Source: an uncultured Methanomicrobiales archaeon
Lineage (GTDB): Archaea; Halobacteriota; Methanomicrobia; Methanomicrobiales; Methanospirillaceae
NCBI GenBank assembly: GCA_963697895.1
Contig: OY969100.1
Span: 1,152,001-1,216,000, forward strand
Length of the DNA stretch: 64,000 nucleotides
Reading direction: 5' to 3'
Shown here: in pieces, positions 912 to 59,743 of the stretch
Position numbering within the stretch: the first letter of the stretch is position 1
Layout: the number at the start of each line of letters is the position of its first letter
Made by a program: the position numbers and the translations under genes
The notes under the pieces: generated by a model
Database searches by the model: none
Told to the model about the DNA's origin: nothing
The model's input: the letters and a program-made list of their open reading frames with translations, nothing else

Positions 912-924
912 CCACATCGGGCCT

Positions 925-15422: not shown

Positions 15423-15638
15423 CCGTGCGCAGAATTCCATAAGGGTCACGTACCGCTCCTGGATCCCGGTCTCCCCCGGCGCTGTCACTGCTTTAATCCT
15501 GTTTCTTTGATTTTTGATCATTCCCTGCTTCACCGATAAGGCGGTAGATCATACCCGTCCCGGGCCGGAATTGCCCGGAACCGGTGGATCAATTTATGGG
15601 GAATTCACCCGAACACTCAGGAGATCGGGAGGGGATTC

Positions 15639-17072: not shown

Positions 17073-17217
17073 TCGCTCCGCCTCCGGATCATCGGAAGAA
17101 GGCAGGGACCATCCCGGGTCACCGGTGAAACAGGAAAGACCGGTGAGTGACAGAATGCAGGTAAGAGATATTCTGGCGCCTGATTTATATCCGGAAGGGT
17201 CCTCAAACAGAAAACAT

Positions 17218-17251
17218 ATATGTAAAGTCATGTAAAATATACTTTACATAT
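17218..17251. promoter_or_regulatory. palindromic operator candidate
   Basis: ATATGTAAAGT-N12-ACTTTACATAT, a perfect 11-bp inverted repeat just downstream of a TTTATAT box at about 17184. Confidence 0.55.
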
Positions 17252-17299
17252 TGTATGTTTCCGGGAGGATCCGATCCGGCGACAACAGGGTGTTTGGGT

Positions 17300-18671: not shown

Positions 18672-18682
18672 CGGGTTTCAGA

Positions 18683-19363
18683 ATGAGTACCAGCCCCCTT
18701 ATCCGGCTTGACGACGTCAGCAAGATCTATCACCTCGAGAGCGGGGATGTCTTTGCGCTGGACCATGTCTCGCTCGAGATCGGAGAGAACGAATTCGTCG
18801 CGATCATGGGACCCTCGGGATCCGGGAAGTCCACGCTGATGAACCATCTCGGGATCCTGGACGTCCCGACGAGCGGGGTCGTGTCCATCGCGGGAAGGGA
18901 TGTCGCATCGATGACCACGCTCGAACGGACCCACATGCGGCGGGATATCATCGGCTACATCTTCCAGAAATTTTACTTAATCCCCCTCCTTTCGGCCTAC
19001 GAGAACGTGGAGTACCCGCTCATCCTGAAATACAAGAAGAGGGATACTTCGGGCAGGGCCAGGGAATTCCTCGATTCCGTGGGGATCGACGAGGCGATGA
19101 GCGCCCACCGCCCGAACCAGCTCTCCGGCGGGCAGCAGCAGCGGGTCGCGATCGCGAGGGCCCTCGTGAACGATCCGAAGATCCTCCTCTGCGACGAACC
19201 GACCGGGAACCTCGACCGGAAGACCGGCCGCCAGATCATGGATATCCTCGTGCACCTGCACGAGACGGGAAAGACGGTGATCCTCGTCACCCATGACCCG
19301 AAGCTGGCAGACTACGCCCAGCGGACGATCGAGCTCGAGGACGGGAGGATTGCCGCATCATGA
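18683..19363 (+). CDS. ABC transporter ATP-binding protein (LolD/MacB type)
   Basis: GPSGSGKST, LSGGQQQRVAIARAL, LCDEPTGNLD, VTHD. Confidence 0.95.
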   Translation: MSTSPLIRLDDVSKIYHLESGDVFALDHVSLEIGENEFVAIMGPSGSGKSTLMNHLGILDVPTSGVVSIAGRDVASMTTLERTHMRRDIIGYIFQKFYLIPLLSAYENVEYPLILKYKKRDTSGRAREFLDSVGIDEAMSAHRPNQLSGGQQQRVAIARALVNDPKILLCDEPTGNLDRKTGRQIMDILVHLHETGKTVILVTHDPKLADYAQRTIELEDGRIAAS

Positions 19364-20562
19364 AGGACATCTTCCTCGACCTGTCGGTACGGAGCGTCCG
19401 GCGGAATTTCCTCCGGTCCGTCCTCGCATCGATCGGCATCGTGATCGGTGTCGTCGCGATATCGGCGATGGGGATGCTCGGGGCCAACATGCAGCTCCAG
19501 GTGAAGAGCGAGCTCTCCTCGAACGCGAACACGATCGTCATCTCGCCCGGACACCGTGCGGATGGGCCCGCCGGGCACGTTCATCTTCTCCCAGTCCTCC
19601 TCCGCGAACGGGATCACGAAGAGCCAGCTCACCCAGATCCGGAACGCGGTCGGGTCCGACGGTGCCGTGATCCCGATCATGTCGAACAGTACCCAGTACA
19701 TCATCAATTCGCTCCCGGGCAGGGGATCCCTCTATGCCCTGGACCCGAACGACATCCCGAAGTTCCTCACCGTCGCTGACGGGACGAACATCGTGAATGA
19801 CAACGATGCCCTCGTCGGGGCGACGATCGCAGCGAACTTCGACGTCAAACCGGGACGCGGATCCAGCTCGGGTCGTCTTCCGACTCCACCCTCCCGGTCC
19901 TCAGGGTTGCCGGGATCCTGGAAGCACGCGGTACCTCGTCGGACAACATCAACGCGGACAACGCGATCATCGTCTCCAAGAGCTGGTACACCGACCAGTT
20001 CAGCACGCCGGACTACTCCCAGGTGAACGTGATCGTGAACGACATCGACACCATCAACGCGACCGAGATGGCGATCGGTGCGAAGCTGAACACGAAGAAG
20101 GATGTCGTCCGGATCGCCGATGCGAGTTCCCGGCTCTCCTCCATAACCTCGACGATCGGCACGCTCTCGTCGATGATGATGGCGATCGGCGCGATATCCC
20201 TGGTCGTCGCGGCCGTGAGCATCTTCAACGTCATGATGATGTCGGTGAACGAACGCGTCCAGGAGATCGGCATCCTGCTCTCCATCGGGACAGAGAAGGG
20301 CGAGGTCCGCCGCATGTTCCTCTACGAGGCAGTCATTCTCGGCATCGTCGGGGGAGGCGTCGGGGCGATCGCGAGTTTCGCCATCGGCTTTTCCGTGGTG
20401 AGCGCCCTCCTCGGTACGACGGCATACTTCTTCCTCTGGGAAAACCTGATCTACCTCCCCATCGGGATGGTCGTGGGTATCGCGGTCTGCGTCCTCTCGG
20501 GGCTCTATCCGGCCTGGAGGGCATCGAACATGGACCCGATCGATGCGCTGAGGGCGGAATGA
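19360..20562 (+). CDS. MacB/FtsX family ABC permease (frameshifts near 19549 and 19851)
   Basis: RSVLASIGIVIGV N-terminus; SVNERVQEIGILLSIG and YPAWRASNMDPIDALR C-terminus. Confidence 0.88.
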
Positions 20563-20998: not shown

Positions 20999-21200
20999 TC
21001 TGGGATGAAAGAAGGGGTTTTCTGATCACCGCACGGTTTCGGGCCTGCGTTATTCAACATTTGGCAATGGCGGTTCCGGCAAGGCGAATATCCCGTAGTT
21101 TATAAAAGAAATAGCGTATCATTTTCATATCGCAACACAGCTCCGTGCTATTTATCTGTCACAGTCGTGAATGATTGAAATATCAAGAGGCCATAGAAAA

Positions 21201-24051
21201 ATGCCCGATCCAACCGAAGCACAGACCCGGCGGGAGAAGATCGATCCCCTCCTCAAAGAACAGGGATGGGACGTCAGGAACCGCTCCCAGGTTGTGCTTG
21301 AGGTCGATACCAGGCAGTCCGATTTTGTATCCCGTGATTACAAGACGGTGAAAGAGACTCTTAAAAACGATGAAGAAAGCAAATATGTCGATTATCTCCT
21401 CCTTGATTCTGCCGGTGCACCTTTGGCCATTGTCGAGGCAAAACGTACCTCGAAGGATTCTCACGTCGGGCAGAAGCAGGCCGAAGAATATACAGACGAT
21501 ATCAAACGACAGACCGGGAAGGAGGTTTTCATTTTTCTTACCAATGGCGACCAGATCATGTTCTGGGACCGGTCACGATATCCGCCCCGGTACGTAAAGG
21601 GTTTCTATTCCCGCCGGGACCTTGAACGGGTGAGGTTCCAGACATCGTTCGGCCAGATCCCAAAGGAGATTGAGATCGATCCCCACATCATCGACCGGGC
21701 GAGGGGTATCGAATGTGCAAAGAGAGTCGTTGAACATATTCACAAGGGGAACCGGAAAGGCCTGATCGTCATGGCAACCGGGACCGGGAAGACCCGGGTC
21801 GCCATGGCCATCATCGATGTCCTCATGAGAGAGAACCTTGTCCAGAAAGTCCTCTTTCTCACCGATCGGATCGCCCTCCGGGACCAGGCATTTGTCAAGG
21901 GGTTCAAGGCCTTTTTCCCGGAAGAATCAAAGGATAAAATCCTCTCCGGGATTTACAACCAGAATAAACGATTGTATGTCTCGACGATTCAGACTTTCCA
22001 GGAAATTTTTCTGGAAAAGACGAACGGAGTATATAACCTCTCGCCAGGTGAATTTGACCTGATCATCTCCGATGAGGCTCACCGGTCCATCTATCATAAG
22101 TGGCGTGATATCTTCACCTATTTTGACTCTATGCAGATCGGATTGACCGCAACTCCGGCAGACCTCATCGAGCGGGATACGTTCCGGTTCTTCGGATGCC
22201 AGGACCATTCCCCCACAGCTCTCTACACCTATGAGGAAGCAGTGGAGGACGGGGTTCTGGTTGATTTCCGGAAGGGTATCGTCAGTGCCCAGACCCATTT
22301 CAAGATACACGGGATTACTCCCCGCGACCTTACCGATGGAGAACGTCAGCGGCTCATCGATCAGGGAATCGATCCCGACGAAATCAATTTCGAGGGGAGC
22401 GATCTTGAGAAGAAAATCGCGGTGAAAGGAACTTCCGAAGCGATCGTGCGTGAGTTCATGGACAGTCTGTCTTCGTGACGAGTCCGGGATGCTTCCGGCA
22501 AAGTCGATCTTCTTTGCGATCTCGAAGAAGCATGCCTCCCGGCTGCAGGAGGCATTTGATTCGCTCTATCCGGAATACCGGGGCGATTTGGCAAGGACGA
22601 TCGTATCCGAAGATTCGCGGGCCTCTACCCTGATCAGAGAGTTTGAGGACAAGTCCCTACCGAGAGTTGCGATCTCAGTGGATATGCTCGATACGGGTAT
22701 CGATATTCCGGAGGTGAGCAACCTGGTCTTTGCAAAGCCGGTCTTCTCGAAGATCAAATTCTGGCAGATGATCGGGAGGGGCACCCGGTCGAACGCTGCC
22801 TGCACGCACTTTAACTGGTTGCCGAACGGGAAGAAAGAAAGGTTCCTGATCTTCGACTTCTGGAATAATTTCGAATACTGGGAGATGCATCCCGAGGGAG
22901 AGGTCCCGGCACAGGTCGAGGCGATGATGGGAAGGATCTTCCTGACCCGGCTGAAGCAGCTCGAATATGCGATGAACCGGGGGGATGAAGCCCTTGCCTC
23001 ATCAGTCCGTGAGAAGATCAGGGACGATATTCAGGCCCTGCCCATGGAATCGGTGACTGTCCGAGAACACAAGAAGGATGTGGAAAAAGCCCTCTCTCCG
23101 GATCTCTGGGACAATGTGGGCCTCGATCCTCTCTCGTTTCTCAGGGAACGGATCCTGTCGCTGATGCGGTTCCGGTCCGGAGGGAACCCTGAGACGGCCT
23201 CCTTCACCCTGAAGTGTGAGCAGCTGGGACTAGCCTCGCTCCAGCACAACGACCGGGAGATCGAACGGCTGAAGGGGGATATCGGCACCATGGTAGACTG
23301 TCTTCCGGAGACGATCAACGCAGTCCGTGAGATGGCCGATGTGAAACGGATGGTACTCTCCCATTCGTTCTGGGACACGCTCAGCTATGACGACAGCCAG
23401 AAAATGATGGCCGACCTCGGTCCCCTGATGCTCTATATGCAGAAGGAACCCACCCGTACGATCATTATCGACATGGCTGACCCGATCGAGAAAGTCCGGG
23501 TTCTATCGCTGCATGAAGAGAAGGAGGAGGAATACATCACCCACTACCGCGAGCAGGTCGAGGCCCGGATCAAGGCCCTTGCCGACCGTAACTTGGCGAT
23601 GAAGAAGATCCGGGAGAACACGCCGCTCACACATGACGACCTGGTATCTCTCGAAGAGACGCTGCTCGGACCGGAGTTCGGCGAAGAGGTCGAGCCTGGC
23701 GAGTATGGGGCCGGAGGGGTGACGGTACGGGATTCGGTCCTGGTCCGGTTCATCCGGCAGGTGCTCGGGCTCTATGAGCAGCCAGACCCCGAAACGTTGA
23801 TCCGGGACGCGTTCCAGACCTTCATGATCGAGCAGAACCGACAGTATTCCGCCGACCAGCTCACCTTTATTCGGATGATCCAATCGTTCTTTGCGAAGAA
23901 GCACCATATCGAGTTCCGAGATTTCTACGAGCCGCCGTTCATTATTCTTGGGTCGAGCGTGCCGATGCCGATGTTCTCGGAGGAGGACCTCAATACATTT
24001 GTGGGAATTTGTAATCGGGTTGAGCGGCAACTGGTCGGGGCGGAGGCGTGA
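21201..24051 (+). CDS. hsdR: type I restriction enzyme R subunit (EcoAI/EcoEI-like; +1 frameshift near 22465)
   Basis: VDYLL...IVEAKR nuclease motif, MATGTGKT, DEAHRS, GLTATP, VDMLDTGID, QMIGRGTR. Confidence 0.92.
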
Positions 24052-24054
24052 GGG

Positions 24055-25224
24055 ATGGAAAAGAGGGAGCTGCCGGAGGGGTGGGAATGGAAGAAATTGC
24101 AGGAAGTCACTTTAAAATATATTAATGGTGGAACGCCTTCCACAGCAATACCAGAATATTGGGATGGTCCAATTCCTTGGACCACCAGTAAATCGATTAT
24201 ATCATGCACTATACACAATGGTGAAAAATTAATATCAGAAGAAGCAATTAAAAAAAGTTCATCAAATATCGTTCCAAAAAATAATGTTCTCATTGCGACA
24301 CGAGTTGGAATTGGAAAATCTGCGGTTAACTCAATAGATATTGCAATTAGTCAAGATTTAACGGGTGTTATCCTCGATAAAAAGATAATTTCACCTGAAT
24401 TTTTTGTCCATTATCTACACAATCAAAAGTTATTAAAGAAACTTGAATCAAGTGCCCGAGGTTCCACAATCAAAGGGCTTCAACGTTCGGATTTGGACCG
24501 AATAGAGATCCCCCTCCCACCTCTCCCCGTCCAGCGCCGCATCGTTGAGATCCTCGAACAGGCGGATGCCCTGCGACGACTCCGGACACAGGCCGATGCA
24601 GAGACGCAGAAACTGCTGCAGAGCGTATTCTATGAGATGTTCGGGGACCCGGTGAGGAATGAGAAGGGGTGGGAAGTTATTGAGCTTGGAGACATTGCTC
24701 TGTTTCAAATGGGTCAATCCCCCCCCGGAATAAGTTATAACAAGAAAGGTATTGGTTTGCCTTTATTGAATGGACCTGAAGAATTTGGGAATAAATATCC
24801 GAATCCAATACAATATACAACACAACCAAAGAAAGTTTGTAAAAAAGGCGATATTTTATTTTGCGTGCGAGGAGCGACAGCAGGAAGGATGAATTTTGCA
24901 GATAAAATATATTGTATAGGTCGGGGATTGGCATCCATAAGGGAAATTCCGAATAAATCAGTAAAACAATATTTATATCAATTTCTTGCATTAAATTATA
25001 ACAAATTTCAGAAAATAGGTCGAGGAAGTACTTTCATTAATATTTCACGTGCCGACTTAAGCACAATAAAAATACCTCTTCCACCCATCTCACTTCAAGA
25101 AAAGTTTTGCTTAGTTGTTGAGGAAACAGAATTGATCCGTGACTTTCAAGGAAGATCAAGCCAAGAAGCTGAGAATTTGTTCGAAGGATTAATGGCCAAA
25201 GTATTCAATGGAGAATTAAAATAA
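24055..25224 (+). CDS. hsdS: type I R-M specificity subunit
   Basis: LPEGWEW, two TRDs, IPLPPLPVQRRIV and IPLPPISLQ conserved repeats, FYEMFGDP. Confidence 0.93.
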   Translation: MEKRELPEGWEWKKLQEVTLKYINGGTPSTAIPEYWDGPIPWTTSKSIISCTIHNGEKLISEEAIKKSSSNIVPKNNVLIATRVGIGKSAVNSIDIAISQDLTGVILDKKIISPEFFVHYLHNQKLLKKLESSARGSTIKGLQRSDLDRIEIPLPPLPVQRRIVEILEQADALRRLRTQADAETQKLLQSVFYEMFGDPVRNEKGWEVIELGDIALFQMGQSPPGISYNKKGIGLPLLNGPEEFGNKYPNPIQYTTQPKKVCKKGDILFCVRGATAGRMNFADKIYCIGRGLASIREIPNKSVKQYLYQFLALNYNKFQKIGRGSTFINISRADLSTIKIPLPPISLQEKFCLVVEETELIRDFQGRSSQEAENLFEGLMAKVFNGELK

Positions 25225-25225
25225 A

Positions 25226-26743
25226 ATGCGCCTCGCCCCCGAACTCAAGTCCAATATTGACATCCTCTGGGACCGCTTCTGGAGCGGAGGCATGTCGAAC
25301 CCTCTCCAGTCCATCGAGCAGATGTCTTACCTTATCTTCATGAAGCGGCTCGAAGACATGGACCTTCAGGAAGCGAACAGGGCGAGGGCAAACAAGATCC
25401 CCTTCACTTCGGCCTTTGCCGGCCACGAAAACTGCCGCTGGTCGGTGTGGAAACACTTCCCTGCCGATAAAATGCTGATCCATGTCCGGGACGTCGTATT
25501 CCCATTCATCAAGAATCTCCACAACGGTGAGAAATCGCTCTTCGCTCAGCATATGCAGGACGCCATCTTTATCATCCCCAAACCCTCCCTCCTCCAGGAA
25601 GCGGTGGCCATCCTTGACGATATGAACATCACCGCCCAGAACCGCGACACACAGGGGGATATCTACGAATACCTCCTCTCCCAGCTCAAGACCGCCGGGA
25701 AGAACGGCCAGTTCCGGACACCTCGTCATCTCATCAGGATGATCGTCGCCCTGGTCGATCCCGATATCAACGACCGGATCTGTGATCCTGCCTGCGGCAC
25801 GGCGGGGTTCCTGGTGAACGCCTACGAGCACATCATCCGGAAATACACGAGCAAAGACCTCCTACACGAAGACGAAGAAGGGGAGATATACAACCTGGTT
25901 GGGGATCGTATCACTAACCCCGAGCATTGGAAGAAGCTCTGGACCGACACCCTCTACGGCTATGACTTTGATGTGACCATGGTCCGTATCTCGCTCATGA
26001 ACATGGTGCTCCACGGGATTCGTGCACCGAAAGTCAATCTCATGGACACCCTCTCCAAGCGGTTCGAGGAGAGAAACCGCTACACTGTCGTCCTGGCCAA
26101 TCCGCCCTTCAAGGGGAGCATCGACAAGACGGATATCAACGACAAGCTCACCCTAGCGACCACCAAGACCGAACTGCTGTTCGTGGAACGGATGATGCAG
26201 CTCCTCCAGGTCGGCGGAAGGTGCGGGGTCATCGTGCCGGACGGCGTCCTGTTCGGGAGCTCGAAGGCTCACAAGAAATTGAGGCAGATGCTCATTGAGA
26301 CCTGTCAGGTCGAAGGTGTGGTGTCCATGCCTTCCGGCGTATTCCGACCGTATGCTGGGGTCTCCACCGCCGTTTTGGTCTTTACCAGGGGCGGGTGCAC
26401 CGACCGTGTGTGGTTCTATGACATGGATGCCGACGGGTACTCGCTTGATGACAAACGGACCTTCATTGACGGCAAAGGGGATATCCCGGATGTCATCGGA
26501 CACTTCAGAAACCGGCGGGAAGAGAACCCTGTCGACCGGAAAAAGAAATACTTCTTCGTCCCGGTAAAAGAGATCATCGAGAACGGGTACGACCTCACCG
26601 TGTCCCGGTACAAGGAGATCGAATACGAGGAGGTCGAGTACGAGAAGCCCGAGATCATCCTTCAGCGGATCGGTGAGCTGGAGGATGAAATTAGGAAAAA
26701 GGTTACTGAACTGGAAATTATTTTAAAAAAAATGAATAAGTGA
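25226..26743 (+). CDS. hsdM: type I R-M N6-adenine methyltransferase subunit
   Basis: GQFRTPRH, DPACGTAGFL and NPPF motifs. Confidence 0.95.
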   Translation: MRLAPELKSNIDILWDRFWSGGMSNPLQSIEQMSYLIFMKRLEDMDLQEANRARANKIPFTSAFAGHENCRWSVWKHFPADKMLIHVRDVVFPFIKNLHNGEKSLFAQHMQDAIFIIPKPSLLQEAVAILDDMNITAQNRDTQGDIYEYLLSQLKTAGKNGQFRTPRHLIRMIVALVDPDINDRICDPACGTAGFLVNAYEHIIRKYTSKDLLHEDEEGEIYNLVGDRITNPEHWKKLWTDTLYGYDFDVTMVRISLMNMVLHGIRAPKVNLMDTLSKRFEERNRYTVVLANPPFKGSIDKTDINDKLTLATTKTELLFVERMMQLLQVGGRCGVIVPDGVLFGSSKAHKKLRQMLIETCQVEGVVSMPSGVFRPYAGVSTAVLVFTRGGCTDRVWFYDMDADGYSLDDKRTFIDGKGDIPDVIGHFRNRREENPVDRKKKYFFVPVKEIIENGYDLTVSRYKEIEYEEVEYEKPEIILQRIGELEDEIRKKVTELEIILKKMNK

Positions 26744-26810
26744 TTCACTTTCTCCTCTATAATCAGGTTATTGAAGAATATCCAGGTGACACTCCCTATC
26801 CAAGTTACCT

Positions 26811-27052
26811 CACCTATTCGAAGAAGTCGCCTGCATGCAGGAGCATGCTCGGATTTTTCTGCGTTGATCCGGTCGATCGCCGATAGAAAATTGTCATGGA
26901 CCTACTTCTCGCGAAGTTTCAATCCGGATTCCAGGTCGAGCCGATTGAACTACAAAAGGCCGGGGTGGGTATTGGCGATGTGGACGAGGTGCATTTTGTA
27001 TTACACTTGTATTGCTTTTGTGGAGAGTGATATAAGCTGGGGTGGGTGGGGT
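26811..27052 (-). pseudogene. mre11: decayed copy of the mre11 5' end plus its upstream region
   Basis: Aligns with 14925..15165. From ATG at 26994 it reads MHLVHIANTHPGLL*FNRLDLESGLKLREK*VHDNFLSAIDRI, versus MHVVHIADTHLGLSQFNRLDPESGMNLREKQIYDNFLSAIERI in the intact gene. Confidence 0.9.
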
Positions 27053-27146
27053 TAAGGTGAAGCAAATCTTTTTTCCGTTAAATGTTAGAGGAAAATATAT
27101 TTGGATTGAAATAAATTGTTTTAATAGTAATGCTGGGGATGCATAG

Positions 27147-27938
27147 ATGCTCACAGGTTCAATTGAATATCGGATTGAAGATGGGCCTGTGTTAGGTTTG
27201 GGCATCTCCATCACAGAAGATGAACTTGAATCAGCACTTGATGGGCCAGTTGCTAAAATAATTTTTGACACCGAAGAAACAGCTCGTTTGACTTTACTTA
27301 TCGAAAGCATTCCTGATACAAATTTCACTTCTGTATCAATTCAAGGAGTATTCTCTTCACGGAGTATTCCAAAAAACTGGCGTGTAGGAGAGGCATTAGC
27401 AGAGGTATATTTAGTTTATAATCATGCTTGTCAATTTCCATGGCCGAATAGTAGAGATGAGAAAAAATCAGGTTCGAGTTTACCTGGGGCAGATCTTGTT
27501 GGTTTTCACAAACATGGTTCAACGTATCGATTTGCATTTGGGGAAGTAAAAACATCCTGTGAAAGCAGGTATCCCCCAGGAGTGATGTATGGAAGGTCCG
27601 GCTTTAAGCAGCAGCTTGAGGATCTAAAGGGAGACCAGACAATTCGTGACGATTTAGTAAAATATCTTGCACATAGGGCAGCAAATTCTACATGGTTAGA
27701 TCAGTTTATTGAAGCGGCTAAGCGTTATTTTTCCAACAGCGGTGACTGCCAAATTTTTGGAATTCTAATTCGTGATGTTCCCCCAAATGGAGATGACCTC
27801 CATTCTCGGACTAACAGACTGGGTCTAAATTGCGCAAACCCCATGTCGATACGTTTATTTGCTTTTTATCTACCTACAAATAGAATACCAACATTAAGTG
27901 AAAATGTCATGCGACGGATACAAGGGGGCAATACATGA
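27147..27938 (+). CDS. PD-(D/E)xK nuclease, Hachiman HamA/DUF1837-like
   Basis: GEALAE...GADLVG...FGEVKT motif spacing; ATGA-coupled to a Ski2-like helicase; AT-rich. Confidence 0.65.
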   Translation: MLTGSIEYRIEDGPVLGLGISITEDELESALDGPVAKIIFDTEETARLTLLIESIPDTNFTSVSIQGVFSSRSIPKNWRVGEALAEVYLVYNHACQFPWPNSRDEKKSGSSLPGADLVGFHKHGSTYRFAFGEVKTSCESRYPPGVMYGRSGFKQQLEDLKGDQTIRDDLVKYLAHRAANSTWLDQFIEAAKRYFSNSGDCQIFGILIRDVPPNGDDLHSRTNRLGLNCANPMSIRLFAFYLPTNRIPTLSENVMRRIQGGNT

Positions 27939-30900
27939 ATATTACGCATGAATCTCTGAGAGATGTTGATTCTCATTGGGCTGTATTCAGCTGTAGGGGA
28001 AGTTGAAAGGGATCGAGGACTTGAGGTGGTTGATGCTCGGTTGGTTAATAAAGCAGTTGGGAGGTGGATAACCTTTGACTTTCATGAAACTGATTTTGAT
28101 GACGATATCTTAAAACGATTAGCAATGGCTTATGAAATAGCAGCAATAGAAGGGCTTTCCTCATTTACAAGTACGACTGCTGATTCAACGATTTTACGTA
28201 TGAAATGCGCCTCCGGTGCATATAGGGCTTTTGAAATTCGACGAATTTTCAACATTCCAGAAGGGAATGAAGAAAAAATCTATCACATTTTACATTTATC
28301 CGCTCTAGCTTATTGTGGGGATCGATGGTCAGATCTTCGACGTTGGTATAATGATAACCGTGAAGCAATTCATCTGTCTTTGCCTGAAAATCCGGCCTGG
28401 GATCATCGTGTATTATATCGTCTTTTTGATTGCTGGATACGGCTATTCCGGAAAGATGGATGGGATGACATAGACCAGATTAACCAAATTATCGCCGATT
28501 TACGAGAAGATCAAGCTTCTTTTGAAGCTGGCGTCCTAAATTCAGGATCTAAGACTAGAGACCAATTTATGGCCTTCAGATTAATTGGATTATATCATTG
28601 GGCAAAAGGGACAGAATTACTTTCAAACTACATGATACATGGGAGACCTTTAGACATCTCGACCCTTCTAGATAAACACTTTGAGACTGCAATAGAATCG
28701 GCAAAGTTAGGTTCTGATGCCCAACTGGAAATATTACTCAGGTGGCTCCATACTACATCGCGACAAATGGTAACCGGATCAATATGGTGGGTTGCAAGAG
28801 CTGAAAATTCGCGAGTTACAGCGTTTGTGAAAGAACTTACTGAAAAACAAGCGATGTTTGAATTATTACCACCCCAACGGGCAGCTTTACAAGAACAAGG
28901 GCTTCTGGATCAAGCAGCTACTGCCGTTGTGATTGATATGCCCACGTCTGGTGGGAAAACTTTGTTGGCCCAGTTCCGAATTTTACAGGCATTGAATACG
29001 TTTTCAGGAGATAATGGATGGGTCGCTTATGTTGCACCTACACGAGCTTTGACCTCTCAAATAACCAGAAGATTACGTCGAGATTTTGAACCAATTAATG
29101 TCCGTGTCGAGCAACTTACTGGCGCGATTGAAATTGATACATTTGAGAATGATTTACTTGCAAGGACGGATGCCTCTAAGTCATTCAATGTCCTCGTCGC
29201 AACCCCTGAGAAACTACAGCTCGTCATTCGAAATAGAAAGGTCCCAAGACCTTTAGCGCTTGTCGTGATGGATGAAGCCCATAATATTGAAAATGCAAAT
29301 CGAGGATTAAGGATTGAATTACTCCTTGCGACAATCAAGCGGGAATGTCGAACTGCCAAATTTCTTTTGTTGATGCCCTATGTCGAAAAAACCGAGACAC
29401 TTGCCAGATGGCTAGCTGACGATATTCATGCCGGACGTGCGATTAGTTTCGGCACAGGTATTTGGAAACCGAATGAGAGAATTGTTGGAATGTATCATGC
29501 TATTGAGGACGCATCTGTAAAGGCTGGGTGGCGCATATCATATAAAACTTTAACAACAACGCCAAAAACCATCACTTTAACTGGTGTTCATTCTGTTGGG
29601 GGTGTGAAACCTCTTCCTCTACCAAAAAGCAGAGTACTCCATAATCTAAGTATTCAAACTGCAGCGATTGCGTCAGTATTATCAGGGCGTGGGACAAGTA
29701 TCGCCGTTGCAAAAACAATTAGAGATACTTGGAGTATGGCTAGGCATCTCAACGCTGCATTCACTCCATTATCCCCAATTCCCCACGAGATCAATCTTGT
29801 TCAGAACTATTTGAAAACAGAAGTGAGTCCTGATTTCGAATTAATCGAGATGTTATCAAAAGGAATCGGCGTCCATCATGCAGGCCTCTCCGACGAAATC
29901 AGAGCATTAATTGAATGGTTAGCAGAGGAAGGCAAGCTGAAAGTATTATGCGCAACAACAACGATTGCTCAAGGTATTAATTTCCCTGTTACATCGGTAT
30001 TCCTTGCCTCCCGTTTTGTTTATAATGAACCTTACAGCGAAGAAATGCCGCCACGAGATTTTTGGAACCTTGCAGGACGAGCAGGTCGAATGAAACACGA
30101 TAGTGTTGGGGTTGTAGGCTTGGCGGGGGGGAATAATCCTGATGAAATTGTGGAATATGTTAAAAAAGCCACAGGGGAATTAGCTTCGCAATTAGTGGAT
30201 TTATTAAATGATTTGGAGAGGAATGGTCAGTTAAATAATCTTCAAGTTGTGATACAAGATAAACAATGGGAAGATTTCCGGTGTTATGTTGCCCATTTAT
30301 GGAATGAGGTAAGAAATTTAGAAAATGTTCTCTCAAATACCGAACAACTTTTACGTAATACATATGGATATAACATTCTTCGCGATTCCGAAAATGGACG
30401 AAGAAAAGCAGATAAACTTCTTGAAGTCACAAAAAATTACGCTAGGTGGTTATCAGACCATTCGGATTATGCAGAAATGGCAGATATGACAGGTTTTTCT
30501 CCTGAAGGAGTAGAGGAAGCGATTAATGGTTTAAACGGATTAGAACGACAACTAACACCTGATGATTGGACTCCAGAGAGTTTATTCGGTCAGGCCTCTG
30601 AGATGGCCCATCTTTATGGAATCATGCTCAATGTGCCAAAACTTGCTGAATCTCTAAAAAAGATAGGAGGCGAAGGAAGAGAATTTGAACACATCGCTGA
30701 TTTAACAAGTGATTGGGTGAACGGGAAAAGCATTCAGGAAATTGCGCGAGCATATTTTGGTGGAGACATTGATCAAACAAAAGCGATAACTCTTGCTAGT
30801 AAAGCAATCTATCAAAATCTAGTAAATTCAGGAACATGGGGCTTTTCAGACTTTAAGTCATCTCTCCGGGTTCGATTTTGAAAATTTATCTGAATCTATG

Positions 30901-31185
30901 CGTCGTCAAATAAATGCAATACCTGCTATGGTGTATTATGGTGTTAAAACCGAGGATGCGGTTTTGATGAGAATGAATTCAGTTCCAAGAAGTGTTGCGG
31001 AAAAACTTGGTCAAAAATATAGAGCATCATTTAGTGAACAATCCACAGACTTTGGGGTTCAAGAAGCTCGCTTTTTCCTTAAAAATCTTGATGAATCTGG
31101 CTGGGATCTAGTGCGTCCAGATAATGCCTTTTTGTCAGGAGCAGAATATAAAGGTATATGGAAAATTCTATCCGGTGAGGAATGA
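27935..31185 (+). CDS. Ski2-like SF2 DEAH helicase, Hachiman HamB-like (+1 frameshifts near 27985 and 30850)
   Basis: PTSGGKT, APTRAL, ATPEK, DEAH, HHAGL, TTTIAQGINFP, NLAGRAGR; long helical N-terminus; C-terminal part is ORF 30898..31185. Confidence 0.8.
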
Positions 31186-31682
31186 TTTGTTATATACTAC
31201 AGGAAGTTAAACATAAAAATTTTTAAACCTATATTATCGTCCAACAAAAGAAGAATTTGAGTTTATTTATTGCATATTTCTGCAATATTGTTATATTTTG
31301 TTACAGACCATCAAGGTTTTATTGTAAGATTCTCCGTTTGGAGGAGAGTCCAAATAATTTCTTAGGTTTTATGCACATACTTGATATTATCAGGTCTATC
31401 AAATTCAAGCTGCGTTGTTTTGTCATATATACTTAGATAAGAATTACTCGTCGATCTCCTGTCTATACCCAACTCAATTAATCGGTAAATCTTATCCAAC
31501 AGAAGGATATATGCATGAGAAAATACGAGCACATGTTCGAAACACTTGAGAACTTCTACTTTGTCGGCTAACTATGACGTTTTTCGCCAGGTGATCGAAC
31601 GAGGACCCAATCCCTTCGATGAAAAATGAGCAAGGATTACTCACGTATATCTCCTTCCTTATCGACAATTAACCAGATCACC

Positions 31683-32174
31683 ATGACTCTCACAGACCTC
31701 CTCATCATCCTCTTAGCCTTCATCATCGGCCTCTTCGCGGCATATCTTTATTTCCGGCAGCGGATCTCCGTGATCGAAGAACGGGCGAGAAACGACCTCG
31801 AACGCTGGAAACTGGAATGCACGAGTGATATCCGGAAGGATTCCGTCAACCGCTCGCGTTCGACGCTCAAAGGAAAAATCTCCGAGCAGATGGCCCCGTT
31901 CCTGCCGGAGTTCCCGTTCTCCCCGGCCGATGCCCGGTTCATCGGCAACCCGATCGATTTTGTCGTCTTCGACGGGTACACGAAGGCAAAGGACGAGAAG
32001 GGCGATTCGATCGGGGTCGTGCTCGTTGAGGTGAAGAAGGGAAAGGGGAAACTCTCGCGGGAAGAACGGCTGATCCAGAAGGCGGTCGAAGAGGGGCGGG
32101 TCACCTGGCAGACGATCGTGTTGAAGGATGAAAACTCCATCGGTTCCGGGGCAGACGAAGACCCTGCTGCATGA
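31683..32174 (+). CDS. membrane-anchored Holliday junction resolvase-like endonuclease (COG4741)
   Basis: N-terminal TM, GKISEQMAPFLP, FIGNPIDFVVFDG, VEVKKG. Confidence 0.88.
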   Translation: MTLTDLLIILLAFIIGLFAAYLYFRQRISVIEERARNDLERWKLECTSDIRKDSVNRSRSTLKGKISEQMAPFLPEFPFSPADARFIGNPIDFVVFDGYTKAKDEKGDSIGVVLVEVKKGKGKLSREERLIQKAVEEGRVTWQTIVLKDENSIGSGADEDPAA

Positions 32175-32288
32175 AGGAGTCAGGGAAATCGAAAGAAAAC
32201 AATTGAATATTATTCCGGTTCTTATTGTACCTTTTATTTGCTCAATTAACCCGAAAGGATATAATCTCTTCATTCTAACCGTTTAACA

Positions 32289-33044
32289 ATGGACGTTACC
32301 CTTATTTCTGCAATGTTTGAAGGATTACCCCGGCAAGGTCCGGGATCGGATGAATCAACCGTTCGTGCCTGTTCCTGTATCCCGTCCTCTTTCAGGGTGG
32401 GGAAAATTCTGGACATCGGGTGCGGTTCCGGGATGCAGACCCTTGCTCTGGCACAGTACTTTCCGGATAGCAAGGTTACGGCGATCGATATCCATCGACC
32501 GTTTCTCGATGAACTGCGGAAAAGGGCAAAAATTGCCGGTCTTGATGAGAGGATCTTAACTCACCGGGCATCGATGGACAATCTTCCCTTTGAAGAAGAG
32601 TCCTTTGATATTGTCTGGGCAGAAGGTTCCGCGTTTATCATGGGGCTCTCTTCTGCGCTCGGGTACTGGAAAACATTTTTAAAACCGGATGGATTTCTGG
32701 TATTTTCTGACTGTACCTGGTTTACTGATTCGCCGTCAGAAGAGTGCAGGGTTTTCTTCGATACCGTATCTCCTGATATGCCGTCGGAATCCGGTACTGA
32801 AGAGATCGTTCGATCTGCAGGGTTTACCGTTGTCGGTTCATTCCGGCTTCCCGATGCAGGGTGGTGGGATCAGTGTTATTCTCCTTTGGCAGAACGGATT
32901 CCCCGGTTAAAAGAAAAATATGCAACCAATCACGATGCACTGGATATCATACACGGGTTAGAAACTGAGCTGGAGATTCATCGAAAATATTCAAAGGAAT
33001 ATGGATATTGCTTTTTCATAATAAAGAATACCGATTCGGAATAA
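32289..33044 (+). CDS. class I SAM-dependent methyltransferase
   Basis: LPRQGPGS, ILDIGCGSG, FDIVWAEG, LKPDG. Confidence 0.9.
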   Translation: MDVTLISAMFEGLPRQGPGSDESTVRACSCIPSSFRVGKILDIGCGSGMQTLALAQYFPDSKVTAIDIHRPFLDELRKRAKIAGLDERILTHRASMDNLPFEEESFDIVWAEGSAFIMGLSSALGYWKTFLKPDGFLVFSDCTWFTDSPSEECRVFFDTVSPDMPSESGTEEIVRSAGFTVVGSFRLPDAGWWDQCYSPLAERIPRLKEKYATNHDALDIIHGLETELEIHRKYSKEYGYCFFIIKNTDSE

Positions 33045-33118
33045 ATCAGGAAGAGAAGAGCGGGGCTGTATCGTCGTGCAGAAAGAATGATTAAGCAAAA
33101 CCGGAGCTATGGTGACGT

Positions 33119-33541
33119 ATGGATTTTTTTAACGCGGCATACAAAGGCTCACCTCCCTGGGACATCGGCCGGCCCCAGAAGGAGTTCGTCGGGCTGGTCC
33201 GGAGCGGAGAGATCACCGGATCGGTACTCGACATCGGATGCGGGACCGGGGAGCATGCCCTCTTCTTTGCGGGTGAAGGGCACGAGGTCTGGGGGATCGA
33301 CTCGGCACCCCGGGCGATAGAGAAGGCAAAGGAGAAGGCTGCCGAAAGAGGACTTCATGTAAATTTTCTCGTCTGGAGTGCCCTGGACCTCTCCTCGCTC
33401 GACCGGACGTTCGATACCGCCACGGATTCCGGGCTCTTCCATACGCTGTCCGATGCAGACCGCCCGGTCTTCGTGGAGAACCTTGCAGCCGTCCTGGCTC
33501 CGGGCGGGAAATACTTCATGCTCTGCTTCTCCGATATCGAA
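33119..33541 (+). pseudogene. class I SAM methyltransferase, N-terminal part (interrupted by an insertion)
   Basis: PPWDIGRPQ, VLDIGCGTGE, DSGLFH; breaks after MLCFSDIE where the sequence turns AT-rich. Confidence 0.85.
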
Positions 33542-33744
33542 ATCACTTTCAATTGATTCAAGTCAAACTGAATTAGTGCACCCTGTGGCAAGCTGTGGTG
33601 TATACGGATAAAATTAAGTGATTCTAAAGGTTTTGAAGAACAATAAGAGACTTTATTCTTTATTAGACAACCCTGGTAGTCACCCCAGGGAACGCGTTTG
33701 GAGGAATTGGGAACTTCACGGTGATTTGTTTATATTTTATCAAT

Positions 33745-34051
33745 TGTGATATCTGGAGAGCCTATACCGGAATTGCCTCTCGCGGATTGTTCATTGTCTG
33801 GTGAATCATGGAGAGAAACCGTATACCGATGGGAAAGGAAATCATATCAATGGCCTCGAAGGATTCTGGGGTTACCTGAAGAGAAAACTTGCCTTAAAAG
33901 GAGGAATCCGACGGGAGATACTACCTCTTTATCTCGGTGAATGTGAATATATGGGCGATACAATCATCGAAAGGGAAAGTGGGATCATGAGGGTGAGACG
34001 AATTCTCAAATTGTTACAACAGGAGGTTGGTGGCTAGATTGCCACTATACC
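33745..34051 (+). mobile_element. IS1595-family transposase remnant (3' part, frameshifted)
   Basis: DIWRAYTGIASRG / VNHG...GNHINGLEGFWGYLKRKL...LYLGE, the ISXO2-like DDE C-terminal motif. Confidence 0.8.
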
Positions 34052-34082
34052 CACAAAATAATGTTTCAAAGAAAATACTGTC

Positions 34083-35228
34083 TCATACCAAATGTGACCC
34101 GCATTGCCCGCAATATTTTGATCCTTGAAGAACTGAAGCCCCGCAGTTACCACATTTGATTGATTGTTCTGATATTTTCACTTCAATCCCACATTCAGGA
34201 CAAAATTTTATATTAGCTGCAATTTTGTTACCACATTTTCTACAAATAGATGATTCTTGAGATTCAAGAGAAGAACTCTCCGATGCAGTTTTCTCTCCAG
34301 CCGAACGTCCGAAGTCTTTATTCTTATCTCCACCTACCATACCTTTCGAGAGCTCTTGAGCCATAGAAAAGCCTGCACCCATTCCAACCCCTAGTCCCGC
34401 AAGATTCGCTGTATCTCCTCCCTTTGAAGCACCGATTCCAATACCCTCAATGGTTTTTCCTGTTTGGTATTGCATATAGTCAACACCGAGAGCTGACATG
34501 GCACCCCTTTTATCAATGGCAGATTGAACCTCATCCGGGAGATTTAGGTTTAGTCCCGCGAATTTTGTAACTTTTAACCCATAATTTTCAGTCTCTGATG
34601 TTAATTTTGCGAGGCACAGTTGTTCAATTGCCTGTAAATACGAAGGCATATCAAGAACACCCATCCCCTTATGCATTTTTAGCTCTCCAAGAGCATTGTT
34701 AAGAACCATTACAATCTGGTCCTTCAGCCAGTTTACAATCTCCTCAGACTTCGTCATTCCCTTAGTTCCAACGAACTGGGTGATTAAAAGCATCGGATCT
34801 GTAACTTTATATGCGAACTGTCCGAACGAACGAATTCTTATAACCCCAAAATCAACATCTCTGAAGGTCAGGGGTTCGGTTGTTCCAAAATATGAACGGA
34901 ATTCCCTTCTCTGAAGCCAATAAAATTCGCCTATCTGCTTAATACCTATGAGTTTACTCGCAATTGCTTGAAGCCCGGGAATATTCTGAGTTGTGAGAGC
35001 ATATCGATTAGCGCTGTCAAAAGTACGCATTACCTTCCCGTCTCGAAGGAAAACCCCATATTCATCTTCTCTAACGACAACATTGTCATTCCACATAATA
35101 TTCTGGGGAAGCCGCCAGATTACATTCTCCCCCTTATGTTCATCCGGCCAATAGAATGTTTTCCGAGATTCTGTTCCCTTGATATCGCTGCCCACTCCCG
35201 TACTTCGCACCCTCTCAAAGTTGCTCAT
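34083..35228 (-). CDS. SPFH (Band 7)-domain protein with C-terminal double zinc ribbon (YdjI-like)
   Basis: VVREDEYGVFLRDGK, LTTQNIP, FGTTEP, RSFGQFAYKVTDP, GLGVGMGAG, then CRKC/CPEC and CGNC/CGQC. Confidence 0.85.
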   Translation of the reverse strand: MSNFERVRSTGVGSDIKGTESRKTFYWPDEHKGENVIWRLPQNIMWNDNVVVREDEYGVFLRDGKVMRTFDSANRYALTTQNIPGLQAIASKLIGIKQIGEFYWLQRREFRSYFGTTEPLTFRDVDFGVIRIRSFGQFAYKVTDPMLLITQFVGTKGMTKSEEIVNWLKDQIVMVLNNALGELKMHKGMGVLDMPSYLQAIEQLCLAKLTSETENYGLKVTKFAGLNLNLPDEVQSAIDKRGAMSALGVDYMQYQTGKTIEGIGIGASKGGDTANLAGLGVGMGAGFSMAQELSKGMVGGDKNKDFGRSAGEKTASESSSLESQESSICRKCGNKIAANIKFCPECGIEVKISEQSIKCGNCGASVLQGSKYCGQCGSHLV

Positions 35229-35764
35229 CAGATTACCCCTATATCTGCCATTTTTTCATGCCTTTCCTCAAGAAGTTCAATAACAGCTTCGAACCTTTGT
35301 CTTAGTTCGGAACATATTTGTTGTGCTTGACTTGTTTCATCCTTGTTAATTTCTTGATTAAGTTTAATGCTAAGATCTTCTAATTCCTTGATTTTCTGAA
35401 TCATACCCCAGTCATAATAATAGAGTGCATATAGTTGTTCTTCGTCAATCTGGTAACTGGGAGAAATGCCAGAGTACCCTTGTTCAGCATGCCCAATGCG
35501 CCCTTCAATCGTTTTTTCCATTTGGATAAGGGTTCCTACTTCACTTAAAAGAGGTAGGTTAAGCCGAGAAGCAATAATCTTTCGGGATTCTTCCAAATTA
35601 TCTCCAATATCCTCACGAAGTTTTTTTGCAAGCTCGAGTCGCAAAAGACTATCAGATGCTCTGATATCCTCTCGCTTCCGATATCCACGAAAACCGGGAA
35701 TTGCAAGTTCAATGTTTTTTATGAGTCCACGGTCTTTTTCAACTCGTTCAATCAGATCAGTCAT
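35228..35764 (-). CDS. alpha-helical hypothetical protein (IPGFRGY motif), coupled to the SPFH gene
   Basis: IPGFRGYRKREDIRASDSLLR and AEQGYSG motifs; TGATG overlap with the SPFH gene. Confidence 0.75.
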   Translation of the reverse strand: MTDLIERVEKDRGLIKNIELAIPGFRGYRKREDIRASDSLLRLELAKKLREDIGDNLEESRKIIASRLNLPLLSEVGTLIQMEKTIEGRIGHAEQGYSGISPSYQIDEEQLYALYYYDWGMIQKIKELEDLSIKLNQEINKDETSQAQQICSELRQRFEAVIELLEERHEKMADIGVI

Positions 35765-35785
35765 ATCACAACTTAGTTCTCTTCT

Positions 35786-36136
35786 TTATTCATAACAAGA
35801 TAAAAGAATAACCCCCAAAGCACAAATGATTAGAATCCCACCAATTAAGAGACCCAAATTTAATGCAGGTCCCTGGGGTCTTGTGAAAAGACTCACAATT
35901 CCAATGAATGCGAGAACCCCCGCAAATCCAAAGAGGTAATTATTTTTTTCTCCGACTTTTATTGCTAGGACTCCTAAAATAATTGAAAGACCAAGGAAAA
36001 AAATCCCTCCAGCGAGATGAATATCCCCGCCACTAATATAATTAAGAATTATTCCTATACCTAGCATCAATGCCAGGGATGCATATCCCAGCTTAAATCT
36101 TTTATCACTGGATCCTTTTCTTTTCTTACTATCCAT
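35786..36136 (-). CDS. 4-TM small membrane protein
   Basis: Basic N-terminus then four Gly-rich hydrophobic segments; first gene of the SPFH operon. Confidence 0.75.
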   Translation of the reverse strand: MDSKKRKGSSDKRFKLGYASLALMLGIGIILNYISGGDIHLAGGIFFLGLSIILGVLAIKVGEKNNYLFGFAGVLAFIGIVSLFTRPQGPALNLGLLIGGILIICALGVILLSCYE

Positions 36137-36266
36137 AATAAATAAAAAATATAATTTTTGGCTTTTAAAAGTGTCGGAATATTTACCAAAATTGATCCAA
36201 CTATATCGATCAATTAAATTACATCCTGTGAGTAAAGTCTAAATAGAGAATCAATAAAGAATTTTT

Positions 36267-37076
36267 ATGCCATTTCATGTAGCCAAATGCCCAACGTGTG
36301 GTGCTAGCCTAGAATTAGAAAAACCAAGCGACGTTATGATATGCAAATTTTGTGGCAATAAAATCTTTTTCAAAGAATCAATAGAAGGAGATATCAATAA
36401 AATCACTAACTTTCTTCAGTTGGCCAACAATGAAATGGAATCTGGCAATTTTCAGAAAGCTATTGAATATTTCAATAAAGTCTTAGAGAATGACCCTAAG
36501 AATTCTGCTGCATATCTTGGAAAAGGGTTGTCCTATGGCAGACTGTGTACTGTTGAAGATTTTAAATTTAATGAGTTGCTAGCTGGGTATTCGAATGCGC
36601 AAAAATATGTACCAAATAATGGTAAAAAAGAATTCATCTCTTCTTCAACTGATTTATTATATAATCATGGCATGAATTGCGAAAAAGAATTACATGAAAA
36701 ATTTATTTATGGTGTGACTGATAAGGAATTGAATTATTATATTGAAAGATCTTTCCAAATAATCAGCTTTTATCAAGCAATATACCAGATTAACGAATGT
36801 GATCTGAGATCTCCCAAAAGAATAGTGGAGATAACAAAAACATTGAGTCTCGGTGTAAAAGGGAAGGGTAATCGCTATGATACAAATTGTAATTTGATAC
36901 AAGATTGGAGATATGAGCTAAAACCCGAGATAATTGAAAGGATAAAAACAATACAAAATGATTATATTGAAATTATTCAAAAAACTGAGCCCGAATTTAT
37001 CTTGGTTACGGAAGAAAGAGATATTATCAAGCCTGAATCTAAAAAGAAGGGATTCTTTGAGAGATTTAGAATATAA
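36267..37076 (+). CDS. zinc-ribbon plus TPR protein with amphipathic C-terminal tail
   Basis: CPTC...CKFC, TPR-like GNFQKAIEYFNKVLENDPKNSAAYLGKG, ends KKKGFFERFRI. Confidence 0.8.
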   Translation: MPFHVAKCPTCGASLELEKPSDVMICKFCGNKIFFKESIEGDINKITNFLQLANNEMESGNFQKAIEYFNKVLENDPKNSAAYLGKGLSYGRLCTVEDFKFNELLAGYSNAQKYVPNNGKKEFISSSTDLLYNHGMNCEKELHEKFIYGVTDKELNYYIERSFQIISFYQAIYQINECDLRSPKRIVEITKTLSLGVKGKGNRYDTNCNLIQDWRYELKPEIIERIKTIQNDYIEIIQKTEPEFILVTEERDIIKPESKKKGFFERFRI

Positions 37077-37113
37077 CCTTTTAATGGTTTTTATCCCTCC
37101 CAAAACAAGCTAA

Positions 37114-37341
37114 TTAAGGATAATCAATATAATCTCTATCGGAATAAGGATTGCAATCTCTCAGTCGATAAATTATCTTTTTGCTGGCATTTCTGAATGG
37201 GTATTTTTCCAAAGCAAAAATTGCATAGTTCGAGCAAGTCGGGTAATGTAAACATTTATGATTCTTATTTCTTGTGGAATATTGATAAACCTTAATCAAT
37301 GCGATAGCCTGGCAATTTAACCAGGGAATTTTCTTCTCCAT
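37114..37341 (-). CDS. YidD/haemolytic-domain-like protein
   Basis: IKVYQ...CLHYPTCSNYAIFALEKY...RLRDCNPY...IDYP matches the three-Cys YidD pattern. Confidence 0.8.
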   Translation of the reverse strand: MEKKIPWLNCQAIALIKVYQYSTRNKNHKCLHYPTCSNYAIFALEKYPFRNASKKIIYRLRDCNPYSDRDYIDYP

Positions 37342-37368
37342 AAAAAAGGATATATTTTAATGAAATTT

Positions 37369-37762
37369 TTATCCTCCAGTTAATTCGTGGTGTATGGCGC
37401 GAATCTCAAGTCCCTTTTGCCTATTCGGGAAGGGGACCCCAAACACTGCTCCTTGAGCATTCACTCTTAGTTCCCAATATTTTTTAGCCAGACATCCTTT
37501 AGGTTGTACTTCAACAATTTCCATACTTGAAATGTTTTTTAGTCTGTAACGTGCCTTCTCTTTCCACATATGCCTCTCCTTCTTTAACCTTTGCATGGTA
37601 TAAAAACCTCTTATCGGTTAATGCTGCCCAAAAATTCCCTTTGCTCAAGAAACTTAGACACCCACTCATCTCAACTGGAGAGAAAAAATAAATTTTTTCA
37701 TCGGGTGTAAGCTGCTTTACTAAATCGTCTGGTAGACCTTCTCTCTTTAATTCTACTGGCAT
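37369..37762 (-). CDS. putative PH-like domain protein (+1 frameshift near 37545)
   Basis: LTPDEKI...AALTDKRFLY...LKNISSMEI...LRVNAQG spacing typical of bacterial PH domains; made of two overlapping ORFs. Confidence 0.6.
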
Positions 37763-37920
37763 ATAGCATTTCTTAATTATCCTTCATTATATAAAATTAA
37801 CGAAATAAGTTTCAATAAATTTAGATAAAAATTTAATGATTTGAAGCTCACTCCTCAAACGGTGCCAGGATCCTGGCGATTTCAGGATTACCGACGCATC
37901 TTTCAGCAATTGAAGTATCT

Positions 37921-59741: not shown

Positions 59742-59743
59742 CC

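Follow-up and report, generated by a model that had tools for sequence, protein, structure and literature searches.

Near the middle of a 64,000-nucleotide (nt) stretch of DNA from an uncultured Methanomicrobiales archaeon (contig OY969100.1, positions 1,152,001 to 1,216,000; hereafter, the window), six AT-rich open reading frames (ORFs) occupy positions 34083-37762. A preliminary description had set them out in three units and treated them as a single mobile membrane-associated system of six genes; all six ORFs were found at the coordinates given for them, with GC contents of 0.32-0.43 versus 0.58-0.60 in the flanks. We concentrate here on the first unit, a three-gene operon that encodes a small protein with four predicted transmembrane (TM) segments (4-TM), a 178-amino-acid (aa) helical protein that we term HEL178, and a soluble SPFH protein with C-terminal zinc ribbons. 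Scaffolds of SPFH (flotillin/stomatin-type) proteins are present in all domains of life, and their cargo and control are poorly understood. To our knowledge, YdjI (also called SamI) of Bacillus subtilis, which links PspA to the membrane, is the only soluble zinc-finger SPFH protein that has been studied. The genes and the control region of the operon are as follows.

35786..36136, minus strand: core gene 1, 4-TM protein of 116 aa, identified by hydropathy; ends 21 nt upstream of HEL178
35228..35764, minus strand: core gene 2, HEL178, helical protein of 178 aa (AlphaFold2 model and alignment A1), with the conserved basic loop IPGFRGYRKRED
34083..35228, minus strand: core gene 3, SPFH (Band_7_1)/zinc-ribbon protein of 381 aa (PF13421, DZR, and Zn_Ribbon_1)
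36137..36266: divergent AT-rich intergenic region of 130 bp between the 4-TM gene and the gene of a zinc-ribbon-TPR protein (Zn-TPR), presumably the promoter region for both flanking genes

The SPFH protein had been described as carrying a double zinc ribbon, and a Pfam scan bears this out. It recovered the Band_7_1 family PF13421 (E 7.4e-37), to which YdjI itself presumably belongs, and PF01145 (E 2.6e-7), followed at the C terminus by DZR (4.6e-8) and Zn_Ribbon_1 (3.1e-12), where four CxxC pairs starting at residues 329, 343, 359, and 373 (residues 329-376) make up two ribbons. A Gly/Ser/Ala-rich linker (residues 256-325) joins the two parts, and no TM segment was found in the protein, the maximum hydropathy over 19 residues being 0.89 and the threshold of 1.6 never being reached. 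The family is highly conserved, with 54% mean column identity over the 31 sequences of alignment A2; its linker is rich in Gly and Met, and its ribbons number two or three (two in the window copy). A search of PDB sequences with the SPFH profile returned zinc-ribbon matches only. The four hydrophobic segments attributed to the 4-TM protein were likewise recovered (residues 16-39, 36-64, 65-87, and 88-116); no Pfam or NCBIfam family was found for it, and it is the probable membrane anchor of the module. It is the only one of the six proteins with predicted TM segments, so that the statement that most of the six genes are membrane-linked holds directly for one of them, whereas for the others the link is inferred from family membership. 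The translational coupling of HEL178 to the SPFH gene was also found as described: the stop codon of the former and the start codon of the latter overlap as TGATG at base 35228.

To place this arrangement in a wider context, the profile of 36 aligned HEL178 relatives (alignment A1) was used to scan one genome per species, which gave 168 matching stretches, of which 158 were confirmed. The best 80 of these (L001-L080), all archaeal, are the loci to which the counts below refer, and the window proteins were compared with all of their ORFs by BLASTP, with iterated hidden Markov models (HMMs) and domain-only profiles in addition. In 77 of the 80, the next gene after HEL178, in the same orientation, is a zinc-ribbon SPFH gene, and in the three others (L034, L062, and L068) the contig ends 112, 261, and 99 bases, respectively, past HEL178. 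The junction between the two genes is an overlap of 1 or 4 nt in 40 of the 77, abutting in 6, and a longer apparent overlap in 2, with a gap of 1-43 nt in 26 and of 112-377 nt in 3. Relatives of the 4-TM protein were recovered in 20 of the 80 loci by BLASTP and in 51 by HMM, and a small ORF (<200 aa) that has two or more hydrophobic segments stands directly upstream of HEL178 in 57 of the 79 loci where this could be tested. Together, the SPFH adjacency, the junctions, and the upstream multi-TM gene establish that the first unit is a real, translationally coupled operon.

The composition of the operon varies around this core. An ABC ATPase is encoded upstream in 11 loci, and in the example scanned an ABC-2 permease adjoins HEL178. 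In some loci of the Thermoplasmata type (L022, positions 6008-7905; also L023, L072, and L078), an ABC ATPase and an ABC-2 permease replace the 4-TM gene upstream of HEL178, and in L022 a DUF2085 membrane protein is encoded directly after the SPFH gene. In a further locus, from a Thermoplasmatota genome (L004, positions 10655-11134), the second gene past the SPFH gene, in the same orientation, encodes an arrestin-like protein (Arrestin_N, E 3.3e-8). Elsewhere the operon is often accompanied by two or three zinc-ribbon paralogs, which are missing in 7 of 36 cases, as they are in the window, and in 13 loci it is accompanied by a 108-aa TPR protein. One ribbon-bearing protein was considered as a possible relative of YdjG of B. 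subtilis; its model (predicted local distance difference test [pLDDT], 84.1) consists of a ribbon and two units of a helix plus a long beta-sheet, with long helices at residues 250-277 and 282-308 that we read as putative TM helices, and a whole-chain Foldseek search with it returned nothing usable.

The loci span Methanomicrobiales, Methanocorpusculum, Methanoperedens/ANME-2, Thermoplasmata/Methanomassiliicoccales, and Aciduliprofundum, and the synteny of the operon is kept in Methanocorpusculum. In 12 diverse loci, of whose 159 neighboring ORFs 47 were scanned, the neighbors are mainly metabolic or housekeeping genes (e.g., GCD14 [a tRNA methyltransferase], histidine phosphatase, MgtE, amidohydrolase, aminotransferases, and thiolase). 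The GC content of the module minus that of its flanks has a median of +0.026 in 39 loci, versus about -0.19 in the window. The host-like GC content elsewhere, set against the low GC content here, indicates that the operon is mostly a resident cluster of archaeal chromosomes, whereas the window copy is foreign.

We then examined HEL178, the least familiar component. Its AlphaFold2 model (pLDDT, 84.6; predicted TM-score [pTM], 0.81) is all-helical, with helices at residues 2-21, 33-66, 70-91, 108-140, and 144-173; the conserved basic loop IPGFRGYRKRED sits in the model after the N-terminal helix and before the four-helix bundle formed by the others. The IPGFRGYR motif, part of which had been picked out in the preliminary description, is invariant or nearly so in the 36 aligned relatives, P23, G24, R26, G27, Y28, and R29 being invariant. 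The family is large (1531 cluster representatives at E<=1e-3 and 879 at E<=1e-10), and a search for relatives of similar length gave 173 proteins, mostly of about 177 aa, none with a functional family. No Pfam family matched HEL178. NCBIfam NF047596 (the LIMLP_15305 family) did so with E 4.8e-9 and 36.3 bits against a cut-off of 210, with HEL178 residues 2-170 aligning to model positions 5-171 of 175. From this score we take HEL178 to be a distant relative of the LIMLP_15305 family and not a member, even though the two align end to end; no function is known in that family, and LIMLP_15305, a Leptospira gene, has a single literature mention, as the neighbor of a small RNA in a table. Fifteen longer members of the HEL178 family were scanned. 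An N-terminal zinc ribbon is present in 5 of them and a C-terminal DUF4178 in 1; in another 1, HEL178 residues 1-85 are fused to part of a Band_7_1 domain, a fusion that may be a deletion or an assembly artifact (the fused forms are P0029, P0141, P0144, P0145, P0156, P0237, and P0222). Other leads were set aside: among PDB sequences, the matches of the HEL178 profile were confined to designed helical proteins and the TorS sensor (best E 0.0013); the best 3 of 30 ESM Atlas matches were unnamed clusters from Archaea and Chloroflexota; and a LemA identity, with 7 of 36 members matching at a best E of 0.0052, was too weak. A literature search found no paper that describes HEL178 or its pairing with SPFH, most subscription journals lying outside its scope.

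An SPFH scaffold gene with an all-helical protein encoded next to it recalls the PspA/IM30/Vipp1/ESCRT-III superfamily, and the preliminary description had proposed that HEL178 may replace PspA; in its fullest form, HEL178 would be a functional substitute for PspA/ESCRT-III, i.e., a membrane-binding, polymerizing repair protein recruited by SPFH. HEL178 does hold the position of a PspA-type partner beside a YdjI-like SPFH gene, is of a size similar to PspA, and belongs to a very widespread family. That PspA itself is missing, as had been stated, was confirmed by the lack of any PspA_IM30 or Snf7 match in the six ORFs and in 40 of the 46 flanking ORFs of the window. However, the same two profiles match none of the 36 HEL178 members at E<=1. 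A Foldseek search of the PDB with the HEL178 model, a check that the preliminary description had called for, gave no match at E<=0.001 (best E 0.12); the best matches were to designed helical repeats, IncA, and V-ATPase c subunits, and the 42 top-ranked matches listed included neither PspA nor Vipp1 nor ESCRT-III. In the predicted fold, four helices of 22-34 residues pack into a compact bundle and no long alpha1-alpha2 hairpin is formed, and the N-terminal helix (residues 2-21) is not amphipathic, its hydrophobic moment (muH) of 0.17 being reached by 1419 of 2000 shuffles (the family median is 0.24). With profile, fold search, and N-terminal amphipathicity all lacking a PspA-like signal, we regard it as unlikely that HEL178 stands in for PspA.

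A physical association of HEL178 with the SPFH protein was evaluated by structure prediction of the complex, which had also been suggested as a check. The pair scored 0.49 and the best of three controls 0.03; the runs share at least 96% of contacts, and the pLDDT of the partner is at least 75. By way of calibration, 116 of 157 solved complexes and 2 of 215 mismatched pairs reach the mark used for such predictions, and those that pass with 0.60 or less comprise only 18 of the 157 solved complexes but both of the mismatches. Binding is thus weakly supported, a point that also counts in favor of the PspA-substitute proposal. Since the pairing was likely beforehand from the adjacency of the genes, we take the prediction as modest corroboration.

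Two groups of known systems are close enough to warrant comparison. The first is the PspA-SamGHI system of B. subtilis. According to passages of two papers (PMC8581546 and PMC13713150), YdjI/SamI has no membrane anchor, a low-complexity Gly-rich linker, and a C-terminal zinc finger; YdjG and YdjH recruit it to the membrane; and it is needed for the formation of PspA foci. A passage of a third paper (PMC11237479) gives YdjG two ribbons, an NTF2-like domain, and a TM segment. The window SPFH protein, with its Band 7 domain, lack of an anchor, low-complexity linker, and C-terminal zinc ribbons, matches this architecture, and the parallel to the pspA-ydjGHI operon drawn in the preliminary description is apt in this respect. 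The window operon differs in having neither PspA nor a TPM protein, the TPM domain of SamH/YdjH having no match in the window ORFs or in the neighbors scanned. The second group comprises the Meth_adaptin and Halo_FHA ESCRT loci of archaea, for which passages of Makarova et al. (2024; PMC10936438) describe a 'flotillin-like' SPFH protein together with a helical protein and two zinc-finger proteins, and in which archaeal SPFH proteins with zinc fingers are proposed to work with membrane-remodeling machinery. According to the same passages, those loci hold Vps4, ESCRT-III, and adaptin-appendage proteins. No match to Vps4, ESCRT-III, or adaptin-appendage families was found in the 47 of 159 neighboring ORFs scanned, the window likewise giving none for Vps4 or ESCRT-III, and neither these families nor PspA were present among the gene clusters occurring in at least 6 of the 80 loci, of which families F13-F21 are unannotated. 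The operon therefore differs from the archaeal ESCRT loci by lacking such neighbors, a distinction drawn from the gene neighborhoods.

The remaining three of the six genes, which form the second and third units of the preliminary description, lie across the divergent intergenic region from the operon.

36267..37076, plus strand: Zn-TPR, zinc-ribbon-TPR protein whose N-terminal ribbon (CPxC...CxxC) is accompanied by a single TPR repeat
37114..37341, minus strand: YidD-family protein of 75 aa (PF01809, 3.7e-14; TIGR00278, 1.7e-14)
37369..37762, minus strand: PH-like gene, frame-broken, with ORF 37511-37762 as the N-terminal part and ORF 37369-37596 as the C-terminal part

The ribbon of Zn-TPR is as described, whereas its TPR assignment is marginal (TPR_2, 27.1 bits against a cut-off of 27). 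A search of a set of 5.8 billion clusters gave only 6 proteins, the window's own included, and an ESM Atlas search with residues 95-269 gave no usable match. The YidD assignment holds, the ORF exceeding the cut-offs of both PF01809 (52.7 bits; cut-off, 27) and TIGR00278 (53.4 bits; cut-off, 40). The PH-like ORF is real but is a fragment: a search with its 83 aa returned 12 proteins including the window's own, the other 11 being 131-140 aa long, and in alignment A4 the ORF covers the first ~73 residues of these relatives and the second, other-frame ORF covers the rest, the frame changing at or beside a run of six identical bases (37535-37540). Support for its PH identity is weak, with no PH-domain match for the window ORFs in the Pfam scan and with bPH_3 reached by 2 of 4 full-length relatives at E 0.027 and 0.046 (15.4 and 14.6 bits; cut-off, 23).

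These results bear directly on the proposal that the six genes make up a single mobile membrane-associated system, transferred as a block. Gene neighborhood analysis of co-occurrence, which the preliminary description had put forward as a check, upheld it for the first unit only: YidD (by BLASTP and iterated HMM), the PH-like ORF and its second frame (by BLASTP, with iterated HMM for PH), and the C-terminal part of Zn-TPR (a profile of residues 41-269) each occur in 0 of the 80 loci. Zn-TPR as a whole matched in 13 loci by BLASTP, over its N-terminal 35-95 residues only and against longer zinc-ribbon proteins. Although its score places it in the YidD family, ORF 37114-37341 stands in a low-GC island of an archaeon, and in none of the 80 loci is the family linked to the SPFH operon. 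The gene GC contents spread from 0.426 (SPFH), 0.387 (HEL178), and 0.370 (4-TM) to 0.317 (Zn-TPR), with 0.329 for YidD and 0.401 for the PH-like gene, which is moreover broken. The nearest relatives of Zn-TPR (P0270, 81%) and of the PH-like protein (P0276, 91%) each come from a contig of 1842 bases from the same source, which we infer to be one contig; this could hold the Zn-TPR, YidD, and PH genes but not the operon too. From this short shared contig and the GC differences, we argue that Zn-TPR, YidD, and the broken PH-like gene are a separate small block that apparently travels apart from the operon. Joint movement of all six genes is largely refuted for the second and third units, and as an account of the whole it appears highly improbable.

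The six ORFs form the right end of a low-GC island (~24000-37850; GC content per kb, 0.31-0.53, versus 0.58-0.60 for positions 1-20000 and 38100-64000), GC-rich sequence resuming less than ~100 bases past the last ORF, which ends at 37762. Other features in and next to this island are as follows.

21171-26743: type I restriction-modification (R-M) locus with hsdR, hsdS, and hsdM
27147-31185: Hachiman-like PDC-M23, a candidate defense system
31626-32174: Endonuc_Holl protein of 182 aa (PF10107, E 3.3e-36), a relative of the Holliday-junction resolvases of archaea
32289-33556: two S-adenosylmethionine (SAM) methyltransferases
33746-34037 (also delimited as 33801-34037): IS1595/ISXO2-like transposase remnant, its match to PF12762 (E 2.9e-4) being confined to the C-terminal ~50 residues
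38169-38768: nitroreductase gene

In the R-M locus, hsdR is broken into two overlapping ORFs (21171-22478 and 22450-24051). The Hachiman-like helicase is split into parts of 972 and 95 aa, its last ~90 residues lying in the other-frame ORF 30898-31185; the 972-aa ORF matches the PADLOC models PDC-M23B (1282 bits) and HamB, and the 263-aa ORF upstream of it (27147-27938) has no Pfam family. The Endonuc_Holl protein, placed between the Hachiman-like genes and the two methyltransferases, has a hydrophobic N-terminal stretch, and the IS1595 remnant directly adjoins the 3' end of the SPFH gene. The three broken genes of the island (hsdR, the HamB-like gene, and the PH-like gene) reflect either decay or sequencing indels. 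No tRNA was found across the window and no direct repeats were found flanking the island, so that neither points to an integration mechanism. The claim that the genes moved as one block into a defense hotspot is accordingly borne out in part: the foreign GC content and the defense island are there, but a single block is doubtful, with GC falling from 0.43 to 0.32 and the second and third units apparently separate. The window operon is a horizontally acquired minimal copy at the edge of a defense island.

Such a location raises the question of whether the three-gene operon is itself an antiviral membrane module of the abortive-infection type. The operon is foreign by its GC content in the window and adjoins the type I R-M locus, the Hachiman-like PDC-M23, the resolvase-like nuclease, and the IS1595 remnant, and the neighbors in L026 include one DNA methylase and one kinase/ORC-like protein. 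Nevertheless, PADLOC-DB 2.0 returned no family for any of the six proteins at E<=0.01 (PHROGs gave only ribbon or TPR fragments for the six genes), and the Pfam scan found no nuclease, protease, NTPase, or pore-forming effector among the three operon genes. In the other loci, the synteny conserved in Methanocorpusculum also speaks against such a role, and the host-like GC content and predominantly metabolic neighbors there leave the antiviral part of the preliminary description unsupported; we consider this role decidedly improbable.

Three further groups of genes lie in the GC-rich parts of the window. A protein with a C-terminal SHOCT domain (3901-4311) adjoins a YhfC-type intramembrane metalloprotease (2836-3732), and a second C-terminal SHOCT protein (60576-61142) adjoins an ABC-2 permease (59360-60493); SHOCT-like domains are described as partners of envelope-stress systems in a passage of PMC11237479. 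A DNA-repair cluster on the minus strand (8643-15107) encodes a HerA-like helicase (DUF87), an unassigned 328-aa ORF, an SMC_N/Rad50-like protein, and an Mre11-like phosphoesterase, and, being of archaeal type, it fits an archaeal host.

Taking these observations together, we think it reasonably probable that the three-gene operon is an archaeal form of the YdjI/SamI-type SPFH module, with a role at the membrane and with Zn-TPR, YidD, and the PH-like gene as a separate neighboring block. We are far surer of what the module consists of than of what it does. By analogy to SamGHI, the soluble SPFH protein would oligomerize beneath the membrane, and the 4-TM protein, together with zinc-ribbon membrane proteins where these are present, would tether the oligomer. 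HEL178 may bind SPFH through its invariant basic loop, either as a stoichiometric partner or as a client, and the assembly might organize or monitor the membrane without PspA, acting as a scaffold in envelope stress or membrane homeostasis.

Several observations weigh against this proposal. The likeness to YdjI is one of architecture and published descriptions, and with no PspA, no TPM-domain protein, and no demonstrable YdjG-like fold, the analogy may not extend to function. No 4-TM gene was detected in 22 of the 79 testable loci, in some of which an ABC-2 transporter pair takes its place, and the predicted binding of HEL178 to SPFH is, as noted above, weakly supported. The relatives nearest to the window proteins (55-86% identity; for HEL178, P0002 at 86%) have so far been seen on short metagenome contigs only. 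The position of the operon beside R-M and Hachiman-like genes is what a defense gene would show. Finally, the ribbon of Zn-TPR resembles the usual zinc-ribbon partners of the operon, and hence the second unit may not be fully independent.

A bolder version of the same proposal is conceivable, although we hold it to be doubtful: the operon could be a widespread PspA-independent membrane-surveillance system of archaea and some bacteria, with HEL178 as a new class of SPFH-bound effector or regulator and Zn-TPR as a ribbon adaptor swapped in on the move into the defense island. If this is true, the surveillance operon would be extended by two or three zinc-ribbon paralogs in most lineages and sometimes by a small TPR protein.

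The operon represents a known type of membrane-stress SPFH system, here with a new partner and a new composition, and with its delineation the six-gene 'system' is removed as a false lead. Archaea pair an SPFH protein of the YdjI kind, almost without exception, with a different conserved partner, HEL178, which is unnamed and for which the searches made gave neither a Pfam family nor a solved structure that matches. The SPFH-HEL178 pair and its candidate membrane anchor offer a concrete entry to SPFH function where the operon is without PspA.

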